From NCBI GenBank assembly GCA_963755045.1, contig CAVWIL010000006.1, forward strand, positions 74,664-138,663: a stretch of 64,000 bases of DNA, given 5' to 3'. The stretch comes from Nitrospirota bacterium. Lineage in GTDB: Bacteria > Nitrospirota > UBA9217. Of this stretch, positions 627 through 19,549 are shown piece after piece (positions within the stretch are counted from its first letter, which is position 1; each line of letters starts with the position of its first letter). The position numbers and the translations under genes are program-made. Under the pieces are notes generated by a model that made no database searches, was not told where the DNA came from, and saw only the letters and a list, made by a program, of their open reading frames with translations.

Positions 627-1987
627 CTATTTTTCCTTTTTTGCCGAAATCGGAAGATTCTTAAATACATCATCGGCCTTCAATGCCGGCTTTAAGATTT
701 CGATGGCCTTCTGTATCTGGATATCGTCCTTCTTGTCTTTCGGCGTAACTTCCATCGAGAATCGTCTTCAACGGAAGGCGTGCCCTTTCCTTTTTTCTTC
801 TCCTCTTTGACCGTTTCGTTCTTCAAGTGGCGATCGAGGTCCTTCTCGCGCACAACTACGTGCACCGAATCGTAGTGCCCTCCTTCGCCTCTTTTACCGT
901 CGGCAATTTCACCTCGATGTCCGGTGTAATCCCCACGTTCTGGATCGAACGGCCGCTTGGCGTGTAGTACTTGGCAGTCGTCAGCCGGACGCCACCACCG
1001 CCTTCGAGAGGGAATACGGTCTGAACCGATCCCTTACCGAAGGTCTGCGTACCCACGATCACTGCGCGCTTTGAATCCTGCAATGCGCCCGCTACGATCT
1101 CCGACGCGCTTGCGCTTCCGGTGTTCACGAGCACGACCATCGGGAACTCCCGTGGCTTTTCCGGGCCGCTGGTGAGAAAATCCTTCCGGTCGGATTTTTG
1201 TCTGCCCTGGATGTACACCACGAGGGAATCCTGAGGCAGGAACTTGCCGCTCACGTCCACGGACGAGTCAAGGAGCCCACCCGGATCGTTGCGCAGGTCG
1301 AGGACCAGCTTCTTGATCCCCTTTGCCTCAAGGTTCTTCAACGCTTTTTCAAGCTCCTCGGTGGTCTGCCCCTGGAACTGGATGATCTTGATATAACCGA
1401 TCTCGTTGTCCAGCATCTCGGACTTCACGCTCATCACCTTGATGACGTCGCGCATGATCTTGAACTCCTTCGGTTTGTCCCATCCATCGCGGTAGATCAG
1501 GAGGTTCACCTGCGTGTTCTTGGGACCGCGCATTTTGTCCACGGCCTGCTCGATGGACATGTCCTTGGTCCACTCATCGTTGATCTTCATGATCTTGTCC
1601 CCGGCGGCGAGTCCTGCGCGAAAACCGGGGGTATCCTCGATCGGCGCGATAATCGTGAGTTGCTGGTTCTTGACCCCGATCTGGATTCCAACGCCCTGGA
1701 ACTCGCCCTTAATGTCCATGTTCATCTCTTTGAACGACCGTTCGTTCATATAGGACGAATGGGGATCGAGGCTCGAGACCATGCCCCGGATGGCGCCCTG
1801 GATCAATTCCTTGGTATCCGGGTTCTCTACGTAGTTCCGCTTTACAAGCTCGAGTGCCTGGGTGAAGGCCTTCAGATCCTCATAGGTATCGGATTTGGCC
1901 TGGACCATCCCCTGACCGATCAACAATGCCGATCAGTAAAAGCATCAGCGCGGCCATCAGAAACTTCTTTTTGTTGATTCGTATCAT
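627..1987 (-). CDS. ctpA: Carboxy-terminal processing (S41, tail-specific) protease, with at least 3 frameshifts as sequenced
   Basis: The core is ORF 856-1926, which carries a PDZ region and the S41 motifs (GIGIQIG, LVNTGSASASEIVAGALQD, TFGKGSVQ). The signal peptide MIRINKKKFLMAALMLLLIG starts at 1987 in another frame. The C-terminal DKKDDIQIQKAIEILKPALK...* is in two further frames and ends at 627. Confidence 0.85.
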
Positions 1988-2163
1988 GTCATCTTCCTCC
2001 AGATGGTTCTGCATAATAACTCTCCCTGAAAAGTATAGCAGTTAGAGTGCATAGTAATAATACCTGACCTTTAGATTTTCGATACTGCTACAAGAAATGA
2101 ACCACAGTCCTCTAGCGGTCCGTGTGTGATCAGCTGTTTCACGGTATACTGACGATTCCATTT

Positions 2164-3361
2164 TCATTTATCCTTCGCCAGCCAGACGAGCGGGTCCTGG
2201 GCCTCTCCGTTCCGGCGTATCTCGAAGTATAGTTTCGAACCCTTCAGGCTGCCGGTATCGCCCGCAAGACCGATCACCTGGCCTCTGCACCGCTGTGCCC
2301 CTTTGTTCAGGTCAAGCCGCGAGAGGTTGCCGTAAAGTGTGTAGAACCCGTTGCCGTGGTCGAGGATCATGAGCTTCCCGTAGCCTTTGTACCAGTCCGC
2401 GTATGCCACCTGGCCGTCGCGGACCGCCCGCACCGACTCGCCTTCGTGCGCCTGGATCTCGATTCCCCGGCGGTATACCATGGTGCCGAACTGCGGGTGG
2501 CGCTGCATACCGAATCGTGTCAGCACCGGGCCGTCAAGGGGCCAGGGAAGCCGGGACCTGTCGCGGTCAGCAGTTTTTCGATCTTGCTGGGAAGCAGGGG
2601 CGAGTGCTTTCGCTGCCCTCTTCTTCTGCTCGTCCTTCTTGATCATGGCCCAGAGACTGGCCGACGATTCTTCCAGCTCGTGCAGGGACTGTTCGTACAG
2701 CGCCCTTTTCTTGCCGCACACCCGCCGAGGATGCCGGCTTTCTTCCGCCTCCGTGCCTCGAGCTCCACTTTCTTTGTCTCCACCGCCCGCTGGTGTGCGA
2801 GCAGTTCGTTTTTTTTCTCCTCAATCTCCGCCTGCCGCGATGCAAGCCGTCTCAGAGTGCTGCCGTACTCCCGAATGACCGCCTGGTCCTGCTCGGCGAT
2901 CAAACCGAGATACTTGATCCGCTTCATCGTCTGGCCCAGCCCGGCAGGGGAGAATATTGCAGCGGCGTATCCGCTCCGGCTCATCTTATATAGCGCCCGG
3001 AGCCGCCGGCTATACTGCTGCTTGAGCGCAGCAAGCTCACGGCTGAGCGCGGTGTTGTTCTCCTCGACCTCCCGAAGGGCCTTTTCGGACCCTCGCAGCT
3101 GTTGTTGCTGATCCGCGAGCTCCGTGCGACCCGTCTGAATGTCACGGTCGATCTTTTCAAGCTCCGACAGGATCGAACGCTCTTTGCGGTCTGCCCGTTT
3201 CAGCTCCTTTTTTTTCTCGCGCATTTCGCGCTTGATGCGCTGCAGCTCTTTGTTATCAGCGGCTTTGTCGGCGCCGAAGGCTGATGGAGACGCCCACCGG
3301 GAGCGCGAGCAGAACAGCCAGCATGAACATGAGAAACGCGGGAGCTGATCGTCGTTCGCAT
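2164..3361 (-). CDS. envC: EnvC-like murein hydrolase activator (coiled coil plus M23 peptidase domain), frameshifted
   Basis: The coiled-coil region (ELQRIKREMREKKKELKRADRKERSILSELEKIDRDIQ...) sits in the frame of ORF 2643-4253. The M23/LytM domain (ORF 2164-2721: GIEIQAHEGESVRAVRDGQVAYADWYKGYGKLMILDHGNGFYTLYGN) is in another frame. The gene lies directly downstream of ftsEX. Confidence 0.75.
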
Positions 3362-7726: not shown

Positions 7727-7813
7727 GCCGGTGTGGTGAAACTGGTAGACGCAGAGGACTCAAAATCCTCCGGGGGCAACTCCATGTCGGTTCGATTCCG
7801 ACCACCGGCACCA
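7727..7813 (+). tRNA. tRNA-Leu (anticodon CAA), class II with a long variable arm and an encoded CCA
   Basis: Acceptor GCCGGTG pairs with CACCGGC. The anticodon stem GAGGA/TCCTC encloses the loop CTCAAAA. The T-arm reads GGTTCGATTCC. Total length is 87 nt and the gene ends in ACCA. Confidence 0.9.
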
Positions 7814-8006
7814 ATAAAAAGATCGGTTATTCAGCCGGTCTTTTTTGTTTTACAGCGAGAGGAATCGAACAAAGGGGGATGGGGGAAGGATTCCCCCATG
7901 CTTCGGGGGAGCGCACGAGGGGGCGGGCCCCATCGTGAAGCGGGGCAACCACGTTAGACGGCACACAGGCATTATGACCGAGAGAAGAATTACTCAATAT
8001 TTACTC

Positions 8007-8035
8007 TTGATTTTATCATTATATGGTGATAATAT
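8007..8035 (+). promoter_or_regulatory. Putative promoter and operator of the phd-parE module
   Basis: TTGATT (8007-8012) is followed by 17 nt and TAATAT (8030-8035). The spacer contains the inverted repeat TTATCA...TGATAA (8013-8018 and 8027-8032), typical of autoregulated TA promoters. Confidence 0.4.
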
Positions 8036-8058
8036 AAAAACCAATCAAGGAGATAATC

Positions 8059-8328
8059 ATGCCGATCATTAAGCCCATATCAAGCCTTCGGAACAAAACA
8101 CGGGAAATTGCTTCTCTCTGCCATGACCAGGATGAACCGGTCTACCTCACCACCAACGGCGAGGGAGACCTTGTCGTTATGAGTATTGAACACTTTGAAA
8201 AGCTGAATGCCAGGATTGATCTCTTCGAAAAGCTTGCCGTGGCCCAGTCGCAGGCCTCATCAGGAGAAAAGGGCATTACCCACTCACAGATGATGCAGAA
8301 ACTCCGGCAGCGCAGCCATGCCAGCTAA
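8059..8328 (+). CDS. Type II antitoxin, Phd/YefM family
   Basis: An 89-aa ORF follows an AGGAGA RBS. Its N-terminus IKPISSLRNKTREIASLCHDQDEPVYLTTNGEGDLVVMSIEHFEKL is Phd/YefM-like. It overlaps the downstream toxin by 11 nt. Confidence 0.8.
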   Translation: MPIIKPISSLRNKTREIASLCHDQDEPVYLTTNGEGDLVVMSIEHFEKLNARIDLFEKLAVAQSQASSGEKGITHSQMMQKLRQRSHAS

Positions 8329-8623
8329 ATACGTTGTCCGCTATCTTCCCATTGCCGTTGACGATCTTCTCGCCATCTATGACTGGATCGCCTCAGACAG
8401 TCCCGCACGAGCAGCTGCCTTTACGAACAAACTTGACAAGCAAATCGGCAGTCTTGCAACTCACCCTTTTCTCGGCCGTATCCCTAAACATGAACAACTG
8501 CAGGCCTCCGGCTACCGTGTGCTTGTCATCGAAGCCTATCTCGTCTTCTATAAGGTACGCGGACACATCGTCGAAATACACCGTGTTATTCATGGCTCAC
8601 GTCATCTCGACGACATTGCTTAG
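8318..8623 (+). CDS. Type II toxin, ParE/RelE family
   Basis: This is a 101-aa ORF. The motifs A..DL..IY.WI, the FLGRIPK stretch and YRVLVIEAYLVFYKVRGHIVEIHRVIHGSR are typical of ParE/RelE. Confidence 0.8.
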   Translation: MPAKYVVRYLPIAVDDLLAIYDWIASDSPARAAAFTNKLDKQIGSLATHPFLGRIPKHEQLQASGYRVLVIEAYLVFYKVRGHIVEIHRVIHGSRHLDDIA

Positions 8624-8763
8624 TATCAGACTGGGTTACGCGTCCCAGCCCAGTAGCTACAAGTCCATCTGACAAAAAATCATGCCCGTAATCTACTAAA
8701 CAAATGGCAAGAAGTCATCGGCAATCCGCTTCAACCGGTGACATTTTATCGCCGATTGACTTT

Positions 8764-8975
8764 TTACTCCGCATACGGAATGGTATCGTTGTTCTTCTCG
8801 GCGATCTCCATGATCCGGCTTATGATATGGGCGCGGTTAGTCCTGATCCCGGGCAGCTTTTCAAATTCCTCTGCAAGCAGTATCTTTTGAAGATCCGCTC
8901 TCAATTTGTTTCGCGCGGGAATGCTTTCCCAGAATCCCGTCAGCCTCAATTCCCGTTCGATTTCAAGAAATGACT
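8764..8975 (-). pseudogene. Possible 3' remnant of a larger gene (C-terminal helical fragment; origin uncertain)
   Basis: The reading frame is open only after a TAG and reads KSFLEIERELRLTGFWESIPARNKLRADLQKILLAEEFEKLPGIRTNRAHIISRIMEIAEKNNDTIPYAE*. It has no credible start or RBS. It vaguely resembles the C-terminal tail of restriction-enzyme R subunits. Confidence 0.2.
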
Positions 8976-9056
8976 TCTAAGTCAAATCAACCAGCCGGCT
9001 GTTCTCGCCGTTCTTGGTGGCATAGGAACCGGAGTATCAAATCTGCAATTGTGACA

Positions 9057-9299
9057 TCAACTTACTCCGGCGCGTTTACTTGTCATCATCGAAGATTTGA
9101 CCCCCTTTGCTCTTCCAGGTCGTGCGGCTGTCGCAGATGCTTCTTCAATACCGCGGGCAAAAGATCCGCAGGATTCACAATGATAGGTCTTGATACTCAT
9201 CGTTTTCATCTTGCCATCCTTATCGGCAATTGTCCGTGGTGTGACGGTTCTGATCATGTTGGTAGCAGTTCTGCAAAGGTGACAAAATTCGATTGGCAT
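9057..9299 (-). CDS. Small zinc-ribbon protein (CxxC...CxxC), hypothetical
   Basis: It reads MPIEFCHLCRTATNMIRTVTPRTIADKDGKMKTMSIKTYHCESCGSF.... It lies immediately downstream of vapC on the same strand. I recognise no family. Confidence 0.35.
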   Translation of the reverse strand: MPIEFCHLCRTATNMIRTVTPRTIADKDGKMKTMSIKTYHCESCGSFARGIEEASATAARPGRAKGVKSSMMTSKRAGVS

Positions 9300-9318
9300 A
9301 CTGAACCCCCTAAGCCAG

Positions 9319-9720
9319 TTAAATGCTCCAGTCCACAATCTTCAGATTCTTTATTTGTTTAAACTCTTTGGTGTTATTCGTAACGAGGGTCATGCCAAGC
9401 GCGTGAGCGTGAGCGCCTATCAGCATGTCCATGGATCCGACGGGCTTCCCTGCTCTTTCGAGCTCTGCACGGATCGCCCCGTATTCCTGGGCCGCCTTTT
9501 CATCGAAGTCCGCGATTTCAAGAGGGAGAATGAACTCATCAAGAGCTTGCTGGTTCTTTTCGATGTGCTGGCTTTTGGACACACCATAACGAAGTTCCGC
9601 AAGGGTTATGGAAGAAATACCGATATCGCCGATAGCATGAGATTTAAAATGTTTAAGCACTTTGGCGGGATTTTGTTTGATGAGGTAAATGCAGATATTC
9701 GTATCCAGCATGTACTTCAT
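9319..9720 (-). CDS. vapC: Type II toxin VapC (PIN-domain ribonuclease)
   Basis: This is a 133-aa ORF. MLDTNICIYLIK is the first acidic PIN motif, and ITLAELRYG and LVTNNTKEF are also present. Its start overlaps the vapB stop (ATGA-type junction at 9720). Confidence 0.88.
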   Translation of the reverse strand: MKYMLDTNICIYLIKQNPAKVLKHFKSHAIGDIGISSITLAELRYGVSKSQHIEKNQQALDEFILPLEIADFDEKAAQEYGAIRAELERAGKPVGSMDMLIGAHAHALGMTLVTNNTKEFKQIKNLKIVDWSI

Positions 9721-9947
9721 TAAAAGTCCTCCCTTTTCTGCATCTTTGGTTGCTTTCTTTCAACCATGAAGTCATCGGAGAATTTATCGAGGCTGTGAAT
9801 CAGGGTATCCCATGAGTTCTTTGTCGGGATCAGCACCACGACGTTCCCCGATTTTTTAACGAACACGTGGTCGTCCTCGAAACGGAATTCCTTGGGCAGA
9901 CGAACTGCCTGGCTTTGTCCATTTTGGAACAGCTTTGCGGTCTTCAT
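9720..9947 (-). CDS. vapB: Type II antitoxin VapB (AbrB/SpoVT-type)
   Basis: This is a 75-aa ORF. The N-terminus AKLFQNGQSQAVRLPKEFRF is the classic AbrB/MazE-like VapB N-terminus. Confidence 0.85.
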   Translation of the reverse strand: MKTAKLFQNGQSQAVRLPKEFRFEDDHVFVKKSGNVVVLIPTKNSWDTLIHSLDKFSDDFMVERKQPKMQKREDF

Positions 9948-9958
9948 TACACACCTCC

Positions 9959-10004
9959 GTATAGTCTATACCAATAATATATATTAAATGGTGCCGGATT
10001 GCAA
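9959..10004 (-). promoter_or_regulatory. Putative vapBC promoter with operator palindrome
   Basis: On the minus strand, TTGCAA (10004-9999) is followed by 17 nt and TATATT (9981-9976). The palindrome GTATAG-t-CTATAC (9959-9971) sits between the -10 box and the GGAGG RBS. Confidence 0.45.
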
Positions 10005-10495
10005 GGGATTTTTAGGTAATTGAAGTGAGGTCAGCTGGCAATGTGCAAAGTCTAACATTAAAGACCTGTATAACCATCCCTCTTGTTCAGTTTTAGTACT
10101 TGCGCAGGTGGAGGTAGTAATACAGACGGGGTAGTGGGTCATTTTGAAAACGTTTTCAAAAATGAGAGTAATTATTCCGAATTGGAACGATTAATTTGAT
10201 AATTAAATAATATGTCTAAATGTGATTGTAAGAGAAGGGATAAATATCAAAAAAGGGACGGAATTTTGTTGATTTGATTTACTACCTTTTAAAGAACATT
10301 CCATGCGCATGTCTCGCTGCCTAAGCGCTGATCCCTTTTCATTTTCATTTTTCTCGGCAGAAGTATGACTAAAGTTTACACGGTTAGACCCACCGATTAA
10401 GTCGGCGTTGCACTGAGCTGATTGCAAAGATCGATTCGATTGATCCTCCCCCGTTGTCTCCTTCACCTGCTCTTTCGAAACGATTGACATCCCGT

Positions 10496-11248
10496 TTACT
10501 TTTGCTCCTGCGCGCCGGCAGCATAGAGGAATTCCTGTGTGTTCACGACAGCGGCTTGCCTCGGGAACACCTTGTCCATGAGAACGCGGTGTACTTCCGC
10601 ATCCCCATCAGCGCATGCGTCCGAGATGACCGCAAGTTTGTAGTCCATATCAGCAGCCCAGCGCACCGTGGAAAGAACAACGCCGCTTGTCGAAATGCCG
10701 AGTAATACGATCGTGTTGATATTTTTGGACCGCAGGATCGTTTCAAGGTCGGTGGTTGAGAATGCCCCCACGCGGCGCTTCGTGACGATTATATCGCCCG
10801 GCTGCGGGGCTACCTTTGCGTGAATCTCGGCTCCCGGGGTGCCTTCACGAAGGCGGCCCGAAGCCTTCAAGCCGCTAAAGAGTTTGTTCTGCGGATTGAT
10901 CTCAGGATACCCGTCCCGAAAACGCACAACGACGTAAATAACTGGCATATGGGCCTGCCGCGATGCCTTGAGGATTGTACCGGCCTTTTCCAACAAGGAC
11001 GTCTGCACACTCTCCGAAAGCATGCCCACGATATCATTTTCATAGTCCATGATTAATACCGCTGTTCTGTCTGCGTGTAAGGAAAACGCGGGCTGGATGA
11101 GTACCGTAGCCTTCGCGCCGGGAGCGGCCGGATCCGGCATGGGGCCGCCTTTCTGCATCTCCTGCTTTTCAACGGCAAAAAGAACCGTTCCCGAAATAGC
11201 AAGAAGCATAATCAACAATAAGATTTTTAAGGTTCTGTGCATGTACAT
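10496..11248 (-). CDS. Isochorismatase-family (cysteine) hydrolase with N-terminal signal/anchor
   Basis: ORF 10496-11308. The likely start is MYMHRTLKILLLIMLLAISGTVLFA. The domain reads TAVLIMDYENDIV...VTKRRVGAFSTTDLETILRSKNINTIVLLGISTSGVVLSTVRWAADMDYKLAVISDAC. Confidence 0.75.
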   Translation of the reverse strand: MYMHRTLKILLLIMLLAISGTVLFAVEKQEMQKGGPMPDPAAPGAKATVLIQPAFSLHADRTAVLIMDYENDIVGMLSESVQTSLLEKAGTILKASRQAHMPVIYVVVRFRDGYPEINPQNKLFSGLKASGRLREGTPGAEIHAKVAPQPGDIIVTKRRVGAFSTTDLETILRSKNINTIVLLGISTSGVVLSTVRWAADMDYKLAVISDACADGDAEVHRVLMDKVFPRQAAVVNTQEFLYAAGAQEQK

Positions 11249-11324
11249 TTCCCCTTTTTGTAATAGAAGTTCTTCTCCCTCTTGAGTGGGCTCGTTTCCC
11301 TTCCTCAAGAGAACTTAGTCTTAT

Positions 11325-11840
11325 TTTTTGCATATCCCCTTCTCGGCCTGAGCAAAATTTCTGACCCGTCTAAGGCCACGTCCGCTCGCCCGCGTAAACT
11401 CGGCCTGTGGCCTCAGACATGTACGCGTTCGCCCCTTCGGGGACGCTTCCTTAGGCCAAGACGGGTGCCCAAAAATTTCGCAATGGTCCGATCCGGGGAC
11501 ATGCGGGGTTGGGGGTAAGGCCAAGACTTTGTTGCTTTACCCCCATTCGAAAATTTAGGTGTGCGACCGAGTCCGAGGGTTAAGCATTTCGGACTGTCTG
11601 AGCCCGCAGGGCGAGTTTCCGAAATGTACTGAGGACGACCGAGCACGCCGTGAAGAATTTTCGTCGGGTGCCCTTCTTTGGTCACATTTCTTGGGCACGC
11701 AAGAAAGGTGACAGAAAAGAGCGAGGGTGGAGTGCTGCGTTGCTCGAAAAGGCTTGTTATCAGTAACGGCAATCATACCGGAGCCTGCCCTCGAATGAAT
11801 TCATCGGGGGCGGACTGTGAACCGGGGTGCAGAAAAAAAA
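11325..11840 (+). repeat. Mosaic foldback repeat, copy A (5'-truncated relative to copy B)
   Basis: Positions 11325-11515 align to 13376-13570 at about 88-90% identity by eye. Positions 11715-11840 align to 13725-13860. The central ~200 nt differs. The copy ends in ...CTGTGAACYGGGGTGCAGAAAAAAAA. Confidence 0.8.
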
Positions 11841-11965
11841 CATCGTGTGCTCCTTGCAAGAAGTCGTATTTACTTTTGATCCTTCATATTGCACCGACAA
11901 TTTTCTCGTACTCGGCAATTATCTCATTATTCTGGTTCTTTATGATGGCAGAAAAAATAAAGAAT

Positions 11966-12341
11966 TTAGCCCGTCCTCCCGGTGAGTTTAACTTCTGCAA
12001 TCATTCTGTCGCCCGGGTTTGCACTGTGTTTATACCGCACGATCTTCTGCACAACATGAGGGTCTGTTGATAAATCTGTCACCGTAGTCGGAATGAGCGC
12101 GGCGGCTACAAGGCAGACAAATTCATCCTGGGCGTAGCCGGGATAGGTGGGTGCCCCGGGGAAATGGCCTTCAAGGTCCAGGTCGTCATTGCGAATTTCT
12201 TTTATTCCCATCATGATATCGGGAACACTGAGCACTATAAAAAACACCATCGATCTTTCTGAGTGCCGCGCCTCTATGCGGTAAAATTGTTTCGAGACCC
12301 TTCCTGTTGTAACATACGAAGGGCATTCCGTTGGGTGCCAT
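11966..12341 (-). CDS. FabZ/FabA-like hotdog-fold dehydratase, frameshifted in a T6 run
   Basis: ATG 12341 follows AAGGAGG and reads MAPNGMPFVCYNRKGLETILPHRGAALRKIDGV. After the T-run near 12240-12245 the sequence continues in ORF 11966-12250: IVLSVPDIMMGIKEIRNDDLDLEGHFPGAPTYPG... (LPHR and HFPG motifs). Confidence 0.6.
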
Positions 12342-12447
12342 TACACGAATCCTCCTTACTTCGATTTAAATGTTATCCTCCGATATAACTCCACGATGCG
12401 CACTTTACTTTACAGGAAGGACTCCCGGGTGTCAACCTTTGCTGCAC

Positions 12448-13032
12448 TCATGTTCCTCTCTTTGGCACATACGGTCTGGAGTAATGGTTGTGTTTAACCT
12501 TGTTATAATCCAGTTCGCTCTCTGCAATCGGGTTCTTTATTTCGTCCGGATAGCCAATGCTCACCATACATTCAACCTTGATGTGTTGGGGCAGTCCCAG
12601 CAGACTTTGAATATATTGCTCCGACGACATCCTCTCTGTATGATTCCGATTCCTGATTTGTATCCAGCAGCTGCCGAGACCCAAATCAAGAGCAGTCATC
12701 TGAACAAGTATTGCTGCAATGGAACAGTCCTCAACCCATACATCGGATTTTGCACTGTCGGCACACACGACGATCCCCAATGCCGCATCCCGCAAATGCT
12801 GAGATCCCTGCTCTCTTGCTTTCGAAAGTTTAGACAGGAGCTCCCGATCGTCAGCAATAATAAATTCCCATGATTTGCCGTTTCGTGAGGTCGGTGAACG
12901 GAGCAATGCCTCTATAAGCACATCAACCGTTTTGCCGGCAATTGGCTTCTGGGCATATTTACGAATACTTCTGCGTGTTCGCAAGAGATCGATCATACCA
13001 TGTCCTTCCTGTAACGTTGCCGGATGCGCCAT
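12448..13032 (-). CDS. Nitroreductase-family (FMN) oxidoreductase
   Basis: This is an intact ORF. LLRTRRSIRKY is the hallmark N-terminus, followed by ...SWEFIIADD...GLGSCWI. The start may be the internal MIDLL at 12996. Confidence 0.8.
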   Translation of the reverse strand: MAHPATLQEGHGMIDLLRTRRSIRKYAQKPIAGKTVDVLIEALLRSPTSRNGKSWEFIIADDRELLSKLSKAREQGSQHLRDAALGIVVCADSAKSDVWVEDCSIAAILVQMTALDLGLGSCWIQIRNRNHTERMSSEQYIQSLLGLPQHIKVECMVSIGYPDEIKNPIAESELDYNKVKHNHYSRPYVPKRGT

Positions 13033-13294
13033 GCCGGCTATCCTTCTTCCCGGCCGTCACGAGGACGTTCAGGGATCCACTTTGTTGTCATTCTCCGGAC
13101 TATTCCCCTGTTAACGTGCTGGAAGCTGGTGGACAGGCAGGTCTTCATAATTAAGGATATATCAATCACGAAAGAGTGTCAAGAAAGGGGCATCGAACTG
13201 CTGTAGACGAAGGGAATCGGCGCAGAGAGCCGTGGTATGTTATTCATACTGAAACGTAGTACAAAGGATTATGCGGAACTGCATTTAGACATTC

Positions 13295-13860
13295 GTCCCA
13301 CGTGTGCATTGTTTTTTTGGGCAGCTCATCACTCGGCCATCCCCGATAAAGGCATTCGAGGACAGGCTCCGCATGCTCTTTTTTGCACATCCCCTTCGCG
13401 TCCTGAACGACATTTTTGACCCGTCTAAGGCCACGTCCGCTCGCCCGCGTAAACTCGGCCTACGGCCTCAGACAGTACGCGTTCGCCCTGTGGGACGCTT
13501 CCTTAGGCCAAGACGGGTGCCCAAAAATATCGTAAGGGCCGCTCCGGGGACGTGCGGGGTTGGGGTAAATCTTAATTCTGCCATTCCCGGCGCAGGGGAA
13601 CGGCAGAACTCTTTGCCTTTCAGAAGCCCCTGCATCCCATGAGCAGGTTCGCGCACAAGCATGGTAAGGTTGAAAAGACCGATGCTGCCACAATGCCAGG
13701 CAGACGCGGCCGAGCCCGTTCTCAAGGCGAGGGTGGAGTGCTGCGCTGCTCGAAAAAGCATGTTATCAGTACCGGCAATCATGCCGGAGCCTGCCCTCGA
13801 ATGAATTCATCGGGGGCGGAGCTGTGAACTGGGGTGCAGAAAAAAAATAGGATCGTGATA
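13295..13860 (+). repeat. Mosaic foldback repeat, copy B (most complete copy)
   Basis: This copy shares modules with copy A (left and right modules) and with copy C in inverse orientation (46-nt identical end GTCCCACGTGTGCATTGTTTTTTTGGGCAGCTCATCACTCGGCCA, plus middle and right modules). Internal inverted repeats lie at 13341-13375 and 13780-13815. Confidence 0.85.
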
Positions 13861-13881
13861 TGTGCTGAGTTAAAACTGCGC

Positions 13882-13911
13882 TTGACTTCGGACATACTAT
13901 ATCAGTATACT
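13882..13911 (+). promoter_or_regulatory. Putative promoter of the PilZ gene
   Basis: TTGACT (13882-13887) is followed by 18 nt and TATACT (13906-13911). This would give a ~190-nt leader. Confidence 0.3.
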
Positions 13912-14104
13912 CAATCGAACAAATAAAGTATTAGCTGCTCCGATAATCGCTAACTTCTTCCTGAAGCGCGCACTTGGGGGATCCTTAGAAGTGCTGGCGA
14001 TTGCATTCTAATGATACTTATTGTTTACGATGTCCTCCCCGCTGAATCTTCTCTTCTGGATTTGATCCAATTATGAAGCTCTGGGAAACGGGAGTTAAGA
14101 GATA

Positions 14105-14815
14105 ATGCAGGAAAAGAGACGACATAAAAGATACAATTTGGATTTAATAGAAATTAACGGCAAGATGAGCTTAACCGACAAAGTCGAAGTCCTTGATATC
14201 AGTCTCGGCGGAGTTGCCCTGAAAGCAGACCGGAGACTTAATATCGGCAAAGAGTATATGATCAAGCTGAAGGAAAAAGGGAAAACGCTCGACGTGAAGG
14301 GCATTGTAGTTCGATCAGAGTTAAGCGGAATAGAAGAAAGAGGCCACGGGGAAACGGCCTCAATATACACGGCAGGGTTGGTATTTAAAGATGGCTTTGC
14401 GGATAAGATAGCTGATTTTCTCAGACCGATCGAGCAAAATAGAAAGAAGAATTCGTCGGCTGTGGTTGATCGGCGGTTCAATGTCAGGTTTACTATCACC
14501 ACTCCCGGCAAGCATATTTTGAGCTATCCTTTAGAGTTTAAGCTGAGATCGATCAGCCTGGGCGGCATGCTCATCCAAACCCAGCAGTCCGTCGAAATCA
14601 ATAGCACTATCCCCATGGAATTGTCTCTGACTTCCGACAAAGCTGTTACCTTTGTCGGAAGAACTATTGCATGCAATATGACGGAAATTGCCGGTCAAGC
14701 AAACTATGATATCAGAGTTGAGTTTACCGATTTGACGGATAAGGACAAGACCCTCCTCCAGACATTCATAGATTACCTGGATGAACTGGAAGCCAGAGAC
14801 GCGGGGAAAAAATAG
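14105..14815 (+). CDS. Tandem PilZ-domain protein (putative c-di-GMP receptor)
   Basis: There are two PilZ signatures: RRHKR...DISLGGVALK and DRRFNVR...SISLGGMLIQ (the RxxxR and D/NxSxxG motifs). The ORF is intact at 236 aa. Confidence 0.8.
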   Translation: MQEKRRHKRYNLDLIEINGKMSLTDKVEVLDISLGGVALKADRRLNIGKEYMIKLKEKGKTLDVKGIVVRSELSGIEERGHGETASIYTAGLVFKDGFADKIADFLRPIEQNRKKNSSAVVDRRFNVRFTITTPGKHILSYPLEFKLRSISLGGMLIQTQQSVEINSTIPMELSLTSDKAVTFVGRTIACNMTEIAGQANYDIRVEFTDLTDKDKTLLQTFIDYLDELEARDAGKK

Positions 14816-14924
14816 GCTGCCCGGACATCGTAATCACCGTTGAACCTGACTTTCTTCTTTAGCACCGCTTCTGTTTTATGTTCTCTTTCCGCATCCACAT
14901 TACAAATCCTCATGCATCGCATGT

Positions 14925-15470
14925 TTAACTGACTACCGTTGTTTCGATCTGCGACCTGAAAAATCCAAAGGCTTCCTTGTCAAAGATGCAGAATTCGACG
15001 AGTTCGAGCGCTGCGCCGGAATTGCCTTTCAAGAACGCCACGGTTTCACCCACCAGTATCTTCGCGCACCGGTCCTTGGGAAAACCGAAGATTCCCGCGC
15101 TGATTGCGGGAATTGAGATGCTCCTGAGCTTTTCTTCAGTTGCAAGGGCAAGCACGCTGTTGATCGCCTGCTTTAATTTATTGTCCTCGTCCCCCTCACC
15201 CATCCTCGGCCCAACCGCGTGAATGACGTACCGCGCTTTCAATTTTCCGCCCGTAGTGATCGCAGCACCGCCGACCGGCACATAGCCGATCTTGTCGCTC
15301 TCGTCCTGTATGACCTGTCCGCCTTTTCTCACGATCGCTCCCGCGACCCCTCCGCCGTGCTGCAGCCGGCTATTTGCCGCGTTCACGATCGCGTCGACCT
15401 CACGTTCGGTGAGGTCTGCTGACACAAGACGGATGATAGTCTTGTTGATCTTTATTTCAAACGTATCCAT
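14925..15470 (-). CDS. Macro domain protein (ADP-ribose / O-acetyl-ADP-ribose hydrolase type)
   Basis: It reads MDTFEIKINKTIIRLVSADLTEREVDAIVNAANSRLQHGGGVAGAI...YVIHAVGP...SISIPAISAGIFGFP. These are the canonical macro-domain motifs. ORF 14925-15551 extends further upstream. Confidence 0.85.
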   Translation of the reverse strand: MDTFEIKINKTIIRLVSADLTEREVDAIVNAANSRLQHGGGVAGAIVRKGGQVIQDESDKIGYVPVGGAAITTGGKLKARYVIHAVGPRMGEGDEDNKLKQAINSVLALATEEKLRSISIPAISAGIFGFPKDRCAKILVGETVAFLKGNSGAALELVEFCIFDKEAFGFFRSQIETTVVS

Positions 15471-15736
15471 AAAACACCTCCTCAACCGGACAAGCGGAAC
15501 CGAAAGGTCAAAAACCGAAAGGCATCTCTCGCAAAGACGCAAAGATCGCAAAGAAAGGCTAAATTAGTCGTTATTTAAACCAAGAGTTCAAGATTTTCTT
15601 GACGTCCTTTGCGGAATCTCTAAGTGGCCGCCTTTCTTTCATAGGCTATTGCGAGGAATATTTTTACCGTTTTGAGTGATATTTGATTCCTTAGTTACTC
15701 TCATCAAGGAAGAGGAACCTAGTATTGGAACAGTAC

Positions 15737-16993
15737 CTATCCCCTGATCTTTTTTCTCTCTTCATCCTCAAATATCTTGACCTTGCCGAACTCGCCATCA
15801 TACCCCGGTGCGATATGGACGTTCCCTGCCCGCATGCGCGCAACGGCCTCGCGGATGAGACGCGAACTCGCGCGCTCGATATCGTCGAGCGGCGTGTCAA
15901 GGAGTATCTTGAACTCGTTGCCGAGCCGTTCGAGCATAGGCAGATACAGAGCATTTACTTTTTTAGTATTCACTCCGCATTCCAAACCCTCGGCAATGAT
16001 CTCCGGCAGGGGGATGATGGAAGCAAAAGAAGGCGCTCCCGTAAGCTTGAAACCTTCTGCCCGGTCGGCAAGTTTCTCAACCCGGTGCATCACGCCCACG
16101 GTCACCTTCCTGCCGCATGTGGGGCAGAGGTAGTTATTGCGTATCGTTTCCTTCGGCGTCAGGCTTACCCCGCAATTCCGGTGTCCGTCGTAGTGATACT
16201 TCCCTTGCTCAGGAAAGAACTCAATGGTCCCGAGAAATCCTTCTCGCGTTTTAATGGCCTTCATCATTGCTGCGTACGTGATGTCCGTATCAAGGATGTT
16301 CGCCTCGCGACCGATCTTTGACGCGGAGTGGGCATCCGAGTTCGAGACAAGAGTGACCCTATCAAGAGCGGAAATCCGCCAGTTCATGAGCGGGTCTGAT
16401 GACAGCCCGTCTCGACAGCATGGATATGCGGCGTAAGCTCCTCATAGCATTCTTCCAGCGAATCGAAGCCCGAGGCAGCGCCGAGTACGGAGAAGTGCGG
16501 CGTCCAAACATGCGCCGGGATGAGCATGGCATCAGGAGCGGCATCGAGGGTGATCTGGAGCAGTTTCTTGGCATCGAGGCCGAGAATCGGCCTGCCGTCG
16601 GACTTGAGGTTGCCGATCTTTGACAAGGCAAGGTTCAATCGCTCGGCAGCCGCGACATCAGGCGCCAGGATGACGGAATGAACCTTCCGCGTCTTTCCGT
16701 TCTTGCTGTAGATACTGCTGATCTCGGCGGAGAGGATGAACGAGACATTCGGCCTTGCACGACCCGGGAACGTCGTCGGTCGTGTACTTTTTCTTAAGCG
16801 TGAACAAGCCATTGCCGGCTGGGGCGAGTTTCTTCTTCAGCTCTTTGATCCATTGGGGATGGGTAAAGTCTCCGGTCCCGATAACGCTGATTCCCTTGAG
16901 CTGTGCCCATTTCCAGATGCCTTCCGGGCACATGTCCGGGCTCGTTGCGCGTGAGTAGTGGGAATGAACGTGGAGGTCGGCGATGAATCGCAT
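15737..16993 (-). CDS. Endonuclease Q-like PHP-domain protein with zinc ribbon, with at least 2 frameshifts
   Basis: Three consecutive ORF pieces make up the gene. They are MRFIADLHVHSHYSRATSPDM...GTGDFTHPQW (16658-17038), ...LIPAHVWTPHFSVLGAASGFDSLEECY (16384-16812), and ...LVSNSDAHSASKIGREANIL...YLCPTCGRKVTVGVMHRVEKL...APGYDGEFGKVKIF (15737-16387). Confidence 0.6.
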
Positions 16994-17240
16994 GGCGGGA
17001 TTATAGCATGAAAATATTTTTTTACCACGGATTTGCACGGATGGGCACGGATGAAAAACTCTCGCCTCTCTGGCAAAGAGGCTTAATATTCCTCTTGTTG
17101 ATCACACTGATTTTTTTTACAAAAAGTCCGATTACTGATATACTTCTTCGAATCGCTTAATAACATGCTTATCTTCGCATGAGACATGAAGACGAATTCC
17201 TTCAGAACCCTCTTCTTGATCAGCTTCTTGGAGTGACAAC

Positions 17241-17474
17241 ATGACTGACCAAAAACCCAAAGACCCTCTCCACGGCATCACGCTTGAAATGATCCTTACC
17301 CAACTGGTGGAACAGTATGGCTGGGATAAAATGGGGAAGGCCGTCAAGATCAAATGCTTTACCAACGATCCGAGCATCAAATCCAGCCTGCAATTTCTGA
17401 GGAGAACTCCCTGGGCGAGAAGCAAGGTTGAAGCTCTGTATCTGAGATGCAAACGAGAGAGCGCGAAGAAATAG
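17241..17474 (+). CDS. DUF2132 (VF530-like) small protein
   Basis: This is a 77-aa [64 protein letters not shown] is the conserved DUF2132 core. Confidence 0.7.
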
Positions 17475-17561
17475 AAGAGTAAAGAGGAGGGATTAAAAGC
17501 ATAAACTCGCAGCTAAGACCTGAAGATACTTCCCACCCTTCTCTCCGCCCCGACCAATCCC

Positions 17562-18074
17562 TCAAGATATTGATCCGTTGCGTGACTCAAACCATCTGCG
17601 GTCCGCCAGCACAACAGAGGTCTCCGTCTGCCGCTCGGGAATGGACCAGTATTTCCCGAGCAGGCGTTCCTTCTCTTCCCACGTGACCAGACGAAAGCCG
17701 TTCTTCTCGTAGAACCTTATGGCCCAGACCGCGGCTGCCCAGGTGCCAACGAGAGTGGGGTGGATCGCGAGCTTCTTGAGATGGGCGATCAGCTTTCCAC
17801 CGATCCCCTGACCCCGAAAAGCCGTGGCGACATAGGCGTGGCGGATGAGCGTCACGTCGTGCACGTCCTGAATGCCCATGATGCCGACGATCTCCCCTGC
17901 TGCCTCGTATCCCCAGAATATCACGCCCGCTTCCAGCTCATGCCGGAGATACTCGCGTGACATATAGGGCTCGTTCCAGCAATCCGCCGGGATAACGCCC
18001 TTGTATGCCCGGGCGGAATCGTTGATGATGGTGTAGAGCGTCTCGAAATCTTTTTCATCACATTCTCGAATCAT
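17562..18074 (-). CDS. GNAT-family N-acetyltransferase
   Basis: It reads MIRECDEKDFETLYTIINDSA...IRHAYVATAFRGQGIGGKLIAHL...FYEKNGF. The Q/RxxGxG motif is the acetyl-CoA binding motif. Confidence 0.8.
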   Translation of the reverse strand: MIRECDEKDFETLYTIINDSARAYKGVIPADCWNEPYMSREYLRHELEAGVIFWGYEAAGEIVGIMGIQDVHDVTLIRHAYVATAFRGQGIGGKLIAHLKKLAIHPTLVGTWAAAVWAIRFYEKNGFRLVTWEEKERLLGKYWSIPERQTETSVVLADRRWFESRNGSIS

Positions 18075-18090
18075 GACATCTTCAGCACTC

Positions 18091-18651
18091 TCAGGCGCCC
18101 CATTGCTCGTTGAAGCAGATCTCGTCAAGAGGTTTCCTCTTCGGACCGTCCTTCTTCTCTTCGGTCGGATATCCCAGCGGTAGAAGTCCGACGATCCTGA
18201 TCGAAGCTGGAATGTTCAAAAGTTTTTTTAACTTCTCTTCATCATAGACGCCCACGAAGACAGTGCCGAGACCCTGGCCCCGCGCCGCAAGCATCAGGTT
18301 CTGGGCGGCGATACCGACATCCACGAGGTAATAGTTCTGGTCCCAAAGCACGCCCGACTGGGCCGGATCAGCGCAGAACACGATCACGACCGGCGCCTCG
18401 CAAAGGGCCTTTTTCGAGGGGTTGGACTTGTAGCCCTTGGGTGCGAAGTAGGAATCCACATAAGAGAGGTCGCTGATCTTCTCCCGCGTTGATCTGTCCT
18501 TTACCACAACCATGCGCCAGCATTGCATGTTCGCCCACGACGGCGCCATGCGCACGGCATCCAGTACTGCATGGAGCTTCTCGTCTTCAACGGGCTTGTC
18601 CCGATAGGTTCGGACGCTCCTGCGCGTCCTTATGGCTTCGGATAGTTTCAT
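18091..18651 (-). CDS. Nitroreductase-family oxidoreductase (second paralogue)
   Basis: It reads [50 protein letters not shown]...[16 protein letters not shown] 18651 was chosen over the upstream in-frame start at 18687. Confidence 0.8.
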
Positions 18652-18744
18652 GTCCTGACCTCCTTCTGAACAATGACATATTGACAAATGTGGGTCTTCC
18701 GGGTTTTGTGTGGGTCGCTTTCTCTGTTCCTCACTCAGCGCATT

Positions 18745-19258
18745 TCACGATCCTATTTTTTTTCTGCACCCCAGTTCACAGCTCCGCGCCGGGCAAGATT
18801 GCCGATACTGAAACAATCCTTTTCGAGCATCGCAGCACTTCCCCTCACCCGGGGACGGGATCGGCCGTGTCTGCCTGGCTTTGTGGCAGCATCGGTCTTT
18901 TCAACCTTATCATGCTTGTGCGGGAACCTGTTCATGGGATGCAGGGGCTTCTGGAAATGCAAAGATACGGGTCTCTCCCCAAACCCCGCAGAGGTTAATT
19001 CGCCACTGAATGGGGTAGGCCTTTTAAGTTCTGCCGTTCCCCTGCGCCGGGTAGCTCTGAGCGAAAGACACGCATAGCAATGCTGCACAGATCATAGTTA
19101 CGAGAACAAGACAAGGCAGACACGGCCGAGCCCTTTTTTAAAGGGCGAGGGTGGAGTGATGCGAGTCCTGCATATCAGGGTGGAGGTACTGTACATCTTC
19201 CCTGCATGCTGCGTGGCCGAGTGATGAGCTGCCCAAAAAAACAATGCACACGTGGGAC
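18745..19258 (-). repeat. Mosaic foldback repeat, copy C (inverted relative to copy B)
   Basis: The reverse complement aligns to both ends of copy B (19258-19213 vs 13295-13340; 18745-18780 vs 13860-13825) and to the middle module. It has an internal inverted duplication (about 18823-18872 vs 19118-19168, GGCAGACACGGCCGA...GAGGGTGGAGTG). Confidence 0.8.
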
Positions 19259-19549
19259 AAGTGCCAACTTAGATAACATTCAGGAAACAGCTTGTTTGAA
19301 ATGAAGAATAAATACGATACTTGTAATTATGTGACCCACATTAAAGTCAGACCCACAAATGTTAACCATAGAGCGCACGGAGAATGCCTTAGTCTATAGA
19401 GTATGAACCTCTGTGGCCTCCCCCCTCACCGTCTGCGCCCTTTTTTACAAATATCGAAAGATTTTTTCTCAGCGTTCTCTGTGGTTGCGTTTTATGTTTT
19501 TCTTTTTTACCGCTCATTTATCATGAAACTTTTTATCAGAAACAACATT

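Follow-up and report, generated by a model that had tools for sequence, protein, structure and literature searches.

A 64,000-nt stretch of DNA from an uncultured member of the Nitrospirota (GenBank assembly GCA_963755045.1, contig CAVWIL010000006.1, here contig C6, positions 74664-138663), referred to as the window, holds three related intergenic repeats, A, B and C, in a cluster of accessory genes. These repeats are very probably members or fragments of a single family of non-autonomous transposable elements of the miniature inverted-repeat kind (MITEs) of 0.5-0.83 kb that are mobilised by insertion sequences (ISs) of the ISL3 family. Copy C is the only intact mobile unit among the three. 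An earlier note on this DNA had described three foldback copies of about 0.5 kb and of the same rank, and had read them as a MITE-like family or as a recombination scaffold. The repeats are real and the reading as a non-autonomous family holds for C, but C measures 663 nt, and A and B, which are chimeric or lack terminal inverted repeats (TIRs), are neither full nor intact mobile copies. The family is new, yet ISL3-derived MITEs are a known kind of element; the phylum is poorly studied.

Termini, target duplications and empty sites

The host assembly comprises 2.96 Mb in 25 contigs and is 86% complete. It was compared with 61 relatives from 37 genera, eight of them congeners. The earlier note had tied its mobile-element reading to additional genomic copies, true termini with target-site duplications, empty sites in relatives and a cognate transposase elsewhere. 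Each of these was found, the transposase in related genera and not in this assembly. With copy B as BLAST query, 105 matches were obtained genome-wide, queries A, B and C combined gave 53 merged loci, and a covariance model of one internal module, YR (described below), produced at least 35 hits. Judged by query coverage, copy C is the archetype, about 20 copies matching from 19351 to 18691 in a first estimate. An alignment of 19 genomic copies with their flanks revealed sharp element boundaries, at which lie imperfect TIRs of about 27 nt with the consensus GGYTCTTCTGACTTTTnTGTGGGTCAC / GGGTCTTCCGGGTTTTGTGTGGGTCGC. A motif scan located 22 TIR pairs with a spacing of 500-821 nt from motif to motif, equivalent to elements of 507-828 nt. 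The 8-bp target duplication is perfect in 13 of these 22 TIR-bounded units and carries one mismatch in three more, and the targets are AT-rich. As no pair of TIR motifs occurs at an IS-like spacing of 1-2.5 kb in the genome, no autonomous copy was found.

In support of transposition, joined flanks of 14 of the genome's own copies were searched against the eight congeners, and junction-spanning matches were obtained for four of them. Two were inspected base by base and proved to be exact empty sites: the site of the element at C6:16427-16935 is empty in congener G002, where a single ATTTTTAT remains, and that of the element at C7:231510-232018 is empty in congener G005, with a single AGAAATAA.

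Copy C is bounded by TIRs of this kind (GGnTCTTCnGnnTTTTnTGTGGGTC), which read GGGTCTTCCGGGTTTTGTGTGGGTC on the plus strand of the window at 18692 and GGGTCTGACTTTAATGTGGGTC on the reverse strand at 19354, each with two TGTGGGTC boxes. Its right half contains the YR module, which folds with a minimum free energy of −75.3 kcal/mol (z = −2.7) and faces outward, in the direction of nitroreductase 2; the start codon of that gene (18651-18649) lies 40 nt past the end of the MITE. The internal inverted duplication of about 50 nt that the earlier note had seen in C exists (18857-18884 versus 19106-19133), but it is part of something larger, a whole inverted module, YL, that matches the YR model over its full length and points outward in the direction opposite to YR. 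This full-length match in the left half implies that each element of this type is an outward-facing inverted pair of modules. Next to copy C lie ~190 nt (19363-19543) that are T-rich and without an open reading frame (ORF), and that G005, G002 and G006 likewise lack in their orthologous intergenic region.

The note's statement that none of the repeats encodes a plausible protein was borne out. ORFs of 111 and 129 aa inside C were rejected as coding because indels do not come in threes and the frame of the relatives is closed after 15 codons. More generally, conservation of ORFs in the MITE units was not found, their frames not being kept in the relatives.

Three architectures share the type-1 TIRs described above: the Y type of ~660 nt, of which copy C is an example; the X type of ~505 nt, consisting of modules X1 and X2 with the TIR pair in opposite polarity; and composites of 750-830 nt with the order Y-left, X1, X2, Y-right. 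All 24 elements examined in the genome are intergenic. Several end 13-51 nt from start codons, and one lies in a 45-nt spacer between co-oriented genes. Genome-wide, element ends are turned to gene starts in 27 cases and to gene ends in 21, so that neither a preferred orientation nor a particular association with nitroreductases is seen. The proximity of a repeat to each of the two nitroreductase genes, which the earlier note had pointed out, is thus coincidental, since the two proteins are 27% identical and the genes face opposite element ends. The same two facts rule out a segmental duplication of a nitroreductase together with its repeat.

The elements are the dominant dispersed repeat of this uncultured soil Nitrospirota lineage, spread over more than 50 loci and amounting to ~1% of the genome. 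Because they delimit strain-specific DNA and are found immediately upstream of genes, they have consequences for assembly quality, for the annotation of 'intergenic' RNA candidates and for the reading of accessory regions. Public contigs that match the elements stem from uncultured Nitrospirota or Nitrospiraceae of soil and groundwater. Two MITE copies, at C3:21354-22008 and C15:3443-4098, have identical flanks on different contigs, near the start of C15, suggesting a duplicated or mis-binned contig segment.

The ISL3 parent

Ends beginning with GG(C)TCTT together with an 8-bp AT-rich duplication match the description of the ISL3 family in PMC11448079, where the ISL3-derived MITE of Microcystis is documented with a GGCTCTTCG end plus a direct repeat of 8 nt. 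Among the relatives, 20 of 61 contain matches to the ISL3 transposase family PF01610. ISL3 elements of ~1378 nt with matching ends and 8-bp duplications were found in four of these genomes (L062 and L069 in G018, L061 in G014, L068 in G034 and L060 in G041). Their left inverted repeat is GGCTCTTCCGACTTTTCAATGGG (GGCTCTTCCGACTTT..ATGGG) and their right inverted repeat is GGGTCTTCCGGGTTTAGTGTGGGTC, with duplications such as TTTTTTCT. A second type of end (GGGTCTTCTCC....GAGTGGGT) is found on ISL3 elements of G007 and G046 and is also borne by module-carrying MITEs in G018. The ISL3 element of the same-genus G006 has ends unrelated to those of the MITEs.

Judging from these ends, the MITEs are probably mobilised in trans. 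An ISL3-family DDE transposase would bind the ~27-bp TIRs through their two TGTGGGTC boxes each and would insert the element at AT-rich intergenic targets of 8 bp, which would be duplicated in the process. Such a transposase would now be absent from this genome or unassembled in it. Within the window, A and B are immobile mosaics and C is the one element left intact. With its termini, target duplications, empty sites and parent IS, the family is a clean case fit for IS and MITE catalogues.

Copies A and B are mosaics

The segments shared by A, B and C lie where the earlier note had placed them, and a repeat finder gave 86-96% identity, a similarity that greatly exceeds what chance would produce. 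A and B share direct repeats at 11324-11419 and 13379-13474 (91%), at 11440-11514 and 13492-13565, and at 11721-11840 and 13727-13847 (86-95%). B and C share inverted repeats at 13290-13339 and 19214-19263 (96%), at 13618-13719 and 18855-18956 (93%), and at 13813-13870 and 18733-18790 (95%). The internal inverted repeat reported for B was likewise recovered, as 64 nt that are 70% complementary (13308-13371 versus 13785-13848).

The composition of both copies is given in Table 1. B covers only positions 123-648 of the C query, approximately positions 95-620 of the 663-nt element, and X1 replaces the middle. Synteny to G002 sets in at the right end of B (13868). A combines a type-2 end with modules X1 and X2 and a fragment of YR, and a clear target duplication around it was not found. 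We infer that both mosaics arose as elements became nested, shared interior modules recombined and ends were lost. Just beyond the right end of B is the best sigma-70-like promoter match of the region (13882-13911, TTGACT-18-TATACT), which faces a PilZ-domain gene (14105-14815).

Table 1. Positions of the repeats, their parts and the adjoining strain-specific segment within the window
Feature	Position	Strand	Description	Basis
Strain-specific segment	7820-13990		Directly after tRNA gene 7727-7810	Synteny BLAST, tRNA, Pfam
Copy A	11267-11866	+	Chimeric element	Type-2 end compared with G018 elements and G007 ISL3 end
A: TIR	11267-11291		Type-2, ISL3-like, AAGTTCTTCTCCCTCTTGAGTGGGC	
A: X1	11324-11515			
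A: X2	11516-11715			
A: YR fragment	11716-11840		3′ fragment, last ~125 nt	
A: right end	up to ~11866		Degenerate	
Copy B	13290-13870	+	TIR-less mosaic	YR matches model R1 at 146.7 bits
B: Y-left fragment	13290-13339			
B: inner inverted-repeat arm	13341-13375			
B: X1	13379-13569			
B: YR	13616-13849		Hairpin insert at ~13780-13815	
Target duplication of C, left copy	18684-18691		ACAAATGT	Read from sequence
Copy C	18692-19354	-	Complete Y-type MITE, 663 nt	Alignment of 19 copies, BLAST limits (query 30-690), sequence itself
C: YR	18754-18958	-	~205 nt, CUGCAUCCCA ... UGGGGUGCAG then A8	Model R1, 195.6 bits
C: YL	19035-19244	+	Diverged inverted paralogue of YR	Model R1, 64.3 bits, E = 2e-16, full length 1-208
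Target duplication of C, right copy	19355-19362		ACAAATGT	Read from sequence

Structured modules inside and outside the elements

The interior of the MITEs is assembled from modules of ~200 nt (YR/YL, X1 and X2) in outward-facing inverted pairs and is not junk spacer. By sequence inspection, X1 and the reverse complements of X2 and YR have a common core, CUCGSCC-loop-GGSCUC. Some copies of YR and X1 contain a nested insert (~36-100 nt, e.g. CACCGTGCTCTTGCGATAACGCGGGTGCAGGC), always just after a conserved CAGAC(A) motif; it was seen in L020, L022, L030 and L054 (1677-1715) and in this genome at C7:620787-621253 and C5:199689-200287. The insert may be a further tiny site-specific element.

YR, the right half of the Y type (~205 nt), was detected by BLAST in 24 of the 61 relatives. 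In addition, 27 diverse copies were aligned, a consensus fold was derived and the resulting five-helix covariance model, R1, was used to search 100 loci. The YR model has hits in 20 of the 61 relatives and 10 of the 37 genera, all within the window's own family; there was no hit in 24 genomes of 11 other families, nor in five loci taken from other phyla as controls. Among 185,579 species genomes, an exact 19-nt motif from the YR 5′ helix is almost confined to Nitrospirota, with a few single matches in unrelated phyla. Within the genus the number of YR copies per genome ranges from 0 to 35 or more, and such patchiness is more in keeping with a mobile element than with a housekeeping RNA.

YR is also found in other settings. 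It forms TIR-less tandem arrays with a period of ~427 nt (YR plus X2 reversed) in G003 and G004, it is fused directly to X1 inside type-2 TIRs in G018, and it stands alone in intergenic DNA of G020 (L087). Arrays of this kind lie at L045 3290-4387 (MFD01872 contig), G003:C3:15025-16534 and G004:C11:17163-18275, with 97% identity between units, and a 77-aa ORF, not conserved elsewhere, recurs in some of them. An orthologous placement of the lone YR beside a BipA-like gene was not found in this genome.

The fold of YR is maintained by compensatory change. In 100 sequences from several genera, which are related and were aligned by fitting to the model so that the statistics are inflated to some degree, 94.6% of cells are paired compared with 87.4 ± 0.2% after shuffling, both sides change in 27 of 41 pairs compared with 14.5 ± 1.9, and 230 cells are compensatory compared with 44. 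None of 500 shuffles reached the observed values, and slid controls were at most 50% paired. The same basal rod appears in single-sequence folds from 14 lineages. The distal arms have wholly different sequences in each lineage with their pairing kept, and the sequences of the loops are conserved across genera.

G·U pairs outnumber A·C combinations by 207 to 23 (9:1), or by 126 to 23 if one fixed G·U is left out. Such an excess is expected only where folding involves one given strand in single-stranded form, namely the one reading CUGCAUCCC...GGGGUGCAG-A8. Covariation and the G·U excess support the fold of YR, and they suggest a strand-specific single strand, probably RNA. The same count applied to X1 gave a G·U excess on both strands, with different predicted folds. 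No sigma-70 promoter or intrinsic terminator above background was seen in or next to the modules. In both outward directions the modules end in a hairpin followed by an A-run, and neither strand of the element has a hairpin followed by a U-run, so that read-through would be allowed. In a comparison with Rfam 15, nothing in the window reached the gathering score, and no relevant match appeared at E ≤ 5 in 11200-19450. The modules might act as RNA, for example as leaders that are free of terminators and compatible with read-through.

We raise tentatively, and with more doubt than belief, the idea that YR, X1 and X2 are new clade-restricted structured non-coding RNA modules that ride on ISL3 MITEs. 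Since they face outward from both element ends, lack a terminator in either direction and at several loci stop 13-51 nt short of start codons or lie in an operon spacer, they may serve as transferable 5′ leaders, as stabilisers or as carriers of promoters and so alter the wiring of neighbouring genes, with X1 serving in addition as a landing pad for an RNA-guided IS1111-type element. If transcribed, the modules would represent mobile structured-RNA cargo and would also provide a defined natural target for an RNA-guided recombinase of the IS110 family.

Weighing the explanations

Several observations weigh against ISL3-mobilised MITEs as the account of A, B and C. The defining ends are missing in two of the three copies, B having no TIR and A one end only. 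The ISL3 transposase (PF01610, DDE_Tnp_ISL3) has no hit in this 86%-complete assembly and none in the copy-rich congener G005 (98% complete), so it is unproven that the elements can move in this genome at present. For C itself, the empty site is inexact, as the ~190 nt at 19363-19543 are missing in G005 as well. The covariation statistics for YR are inflated as stated above. Finally, conservation across genera with covariation is not a feature of typical MITE interiors, and the modules may therefore have a life of their own for which the MITE model does not account.

In a different explanation, the ~200-nt modules are primary. They would constitute a clade-specific, multicopy family of structured non-coding RNAs or an RNA-level selfish element that spreads by itself and has been caught many times between ISL3 ends; A and B would be native module clusters and not decayed MITEs. 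The occurrence of YR alone in L087, joined to X1 within the other TIR type and in TIR-less tandem arrays speaks for it, as do the strong covariation, the G·U asymmetry, the loops conserved across genera and the core common to X1 and the reversed X2 and YR. On the other hand, most of this genome's copies are contained in units that have TIRs and target duplications. The modules have no promoter or terminator consensus in or beside them, no Rfam match and no conserved orthologous placement, and a copy number that varies from 0 to at least 35 within a genus is what a mobile element shows, not a housekeeping RNA. We regard primary modules as a possible but rather improbable origin. Their size (~180-200 nt) and structure also resemble those of bridge RNAs, and in L054 of G005 an IS1111-type element with a 402-aa DEDD transposase sits between the halves of X1 in a composite MITE. 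That the modules are what remains, without a transposase, of the guide-RNA (bridge or seek RNA) tails of IS1111/IS110-type elements is nevertheless very improbable. The same IS (ends ACATAATGG...CCATATCAG) is flanked by unrelated sequence in G020 and G003, so X1 is a target of the IS1111-type element and not its tail; an intact X1 runs continuously across the insertion point; and a BLAST comparison of every module with 16 IS110-family loci and their flanks, from seven genomes, gave nothing at E = 1e-3.

The alternative in which the repeats are a recombination scaffold assigns a function to their arrangement: recombination between the direct copies A and B would delete, and between the inverted copies B and C would invert, the accessory genes enclosed. 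Shared segments of 100-190 nt at 90-96% identity suffice for RecA-mediated exchange, A and B lie in or at the edge of a 6.2-kb strain-specific segment beside a tRNA gene, and the synteny breakpoint is the right end of B. Yet B and C are both absent at the orthologous locus of G005, G002, G006 and G003, and the block from PilZ to nitroreductase 2 (13989-18676) has the same order and orientation, with both flanks, in the first three of these repeat-less congeners. In G003, which shows no repeat module either, it is collinear as far as 18081, where synteny ends. The alternative arrangement was not found in the congener comparison, and the mosaicism of A and B points to past recombination of modules and not to an ongoing switch. 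Inversion of the 13.9-18.7 kb segment, which the earlier note had envisaged, thus found no support, and we consider a scaffold unlikely. ISL3-mobilised MITEs with secondarily rearranged relatives remain our preferred explanation of A, B and C.

Neighbouring genes and other mobile elements

The strain-specific segment (7820-13990) holds, besides A and B, two toxin-antitoxin pairs, an isochorismatase, a FabA-like gene and nitroreductase 1. G005 has ~1.4 kb in its place, and it also lacks 18677-19543 entirely. The toxin-antitoxin pairs are of type II and consist of Phd/YefM and ParE (8059-8623) and of a MazE-like antitoxin and PIN/VapC (9319-9947). No integrase was seen in the segment beside the tRNA gene.

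The composite MITE of G005 that carries the IS1111-type element is bounded by TIRs and flanked by the duplication AAAAGACT, and the insertion lies inside X1 at CCTTAG^GCCAGGACGGG. The IS1111-type element measures ~1.55 kb (L054, G005:C1:1495500-1500500, at 1742-3296; also L055 and L056) and has subterminal inverted repeats (ATGGCTGACAGTT / AACTGTCAGCCAT). In two other genomes it is found at CYTnTAG^GG sites, where its flanks differ. In its 3′ tail lies TTGGCCTAGGGAA, which is nearly antisense to the X1 target and may therefore be a seek- or bridge-RNA guide. An origin of the modules as omega-RNA of TnpB or IscB was rejected, PF07282 being absent from five module-rich genomes. Y1_Tnp genes exist, but none adjoins a module in this genome, the nearest being ~2 kb away, and the units are 5-10 times longer than repetitive extragenic palindromic (REP) sequences.

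Comparison with known systems

The closest known counterpart is the 187-nt ISL3-derived MITE of Microcystis aeruginosa (PMC11448079), which likewise has ends beginning with GGCTCTTC and 8-bp direct repeats, lacks a transposase, occurs in many copies, matches the ends of full ISL3 elements and inserts beside genes. In contrast, the elements described here are three to four times longer (0.5-0.83 kb) and have duplicated subterminal TGTGGGTC boxes. Their interior consists of conserved structured modules that are common to subfamilies with two TIR types and also occur outside TIRs.

REP and REPIN sequences serve as targets of ISs of the IS1111 group, and X1 is likewise palindromic and an insertion site of an IS1111-type element. 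At ~190 nt, however, X1 is much larger, it has no adjacent RAYT gene in this genome and it travels in a DDE-type MITE.

BOX, Correia, ERIC and RUP elements are modular or mosaic bacterial repeats. As in the Tn3-derived TIMEs (PMC4133298) and pneumococcal BOX, the modules of the present family are interchangeable and are predicted to fold as RNA when co-transcribed. Modular bacterial repeats are likewise intergenic, some of them inside operons, and form mosaics through recombination between copies. What distinguishes the modules presented here is their length of ~200 nt, their multi-helix fold and the compensatory changes that extend across genera.

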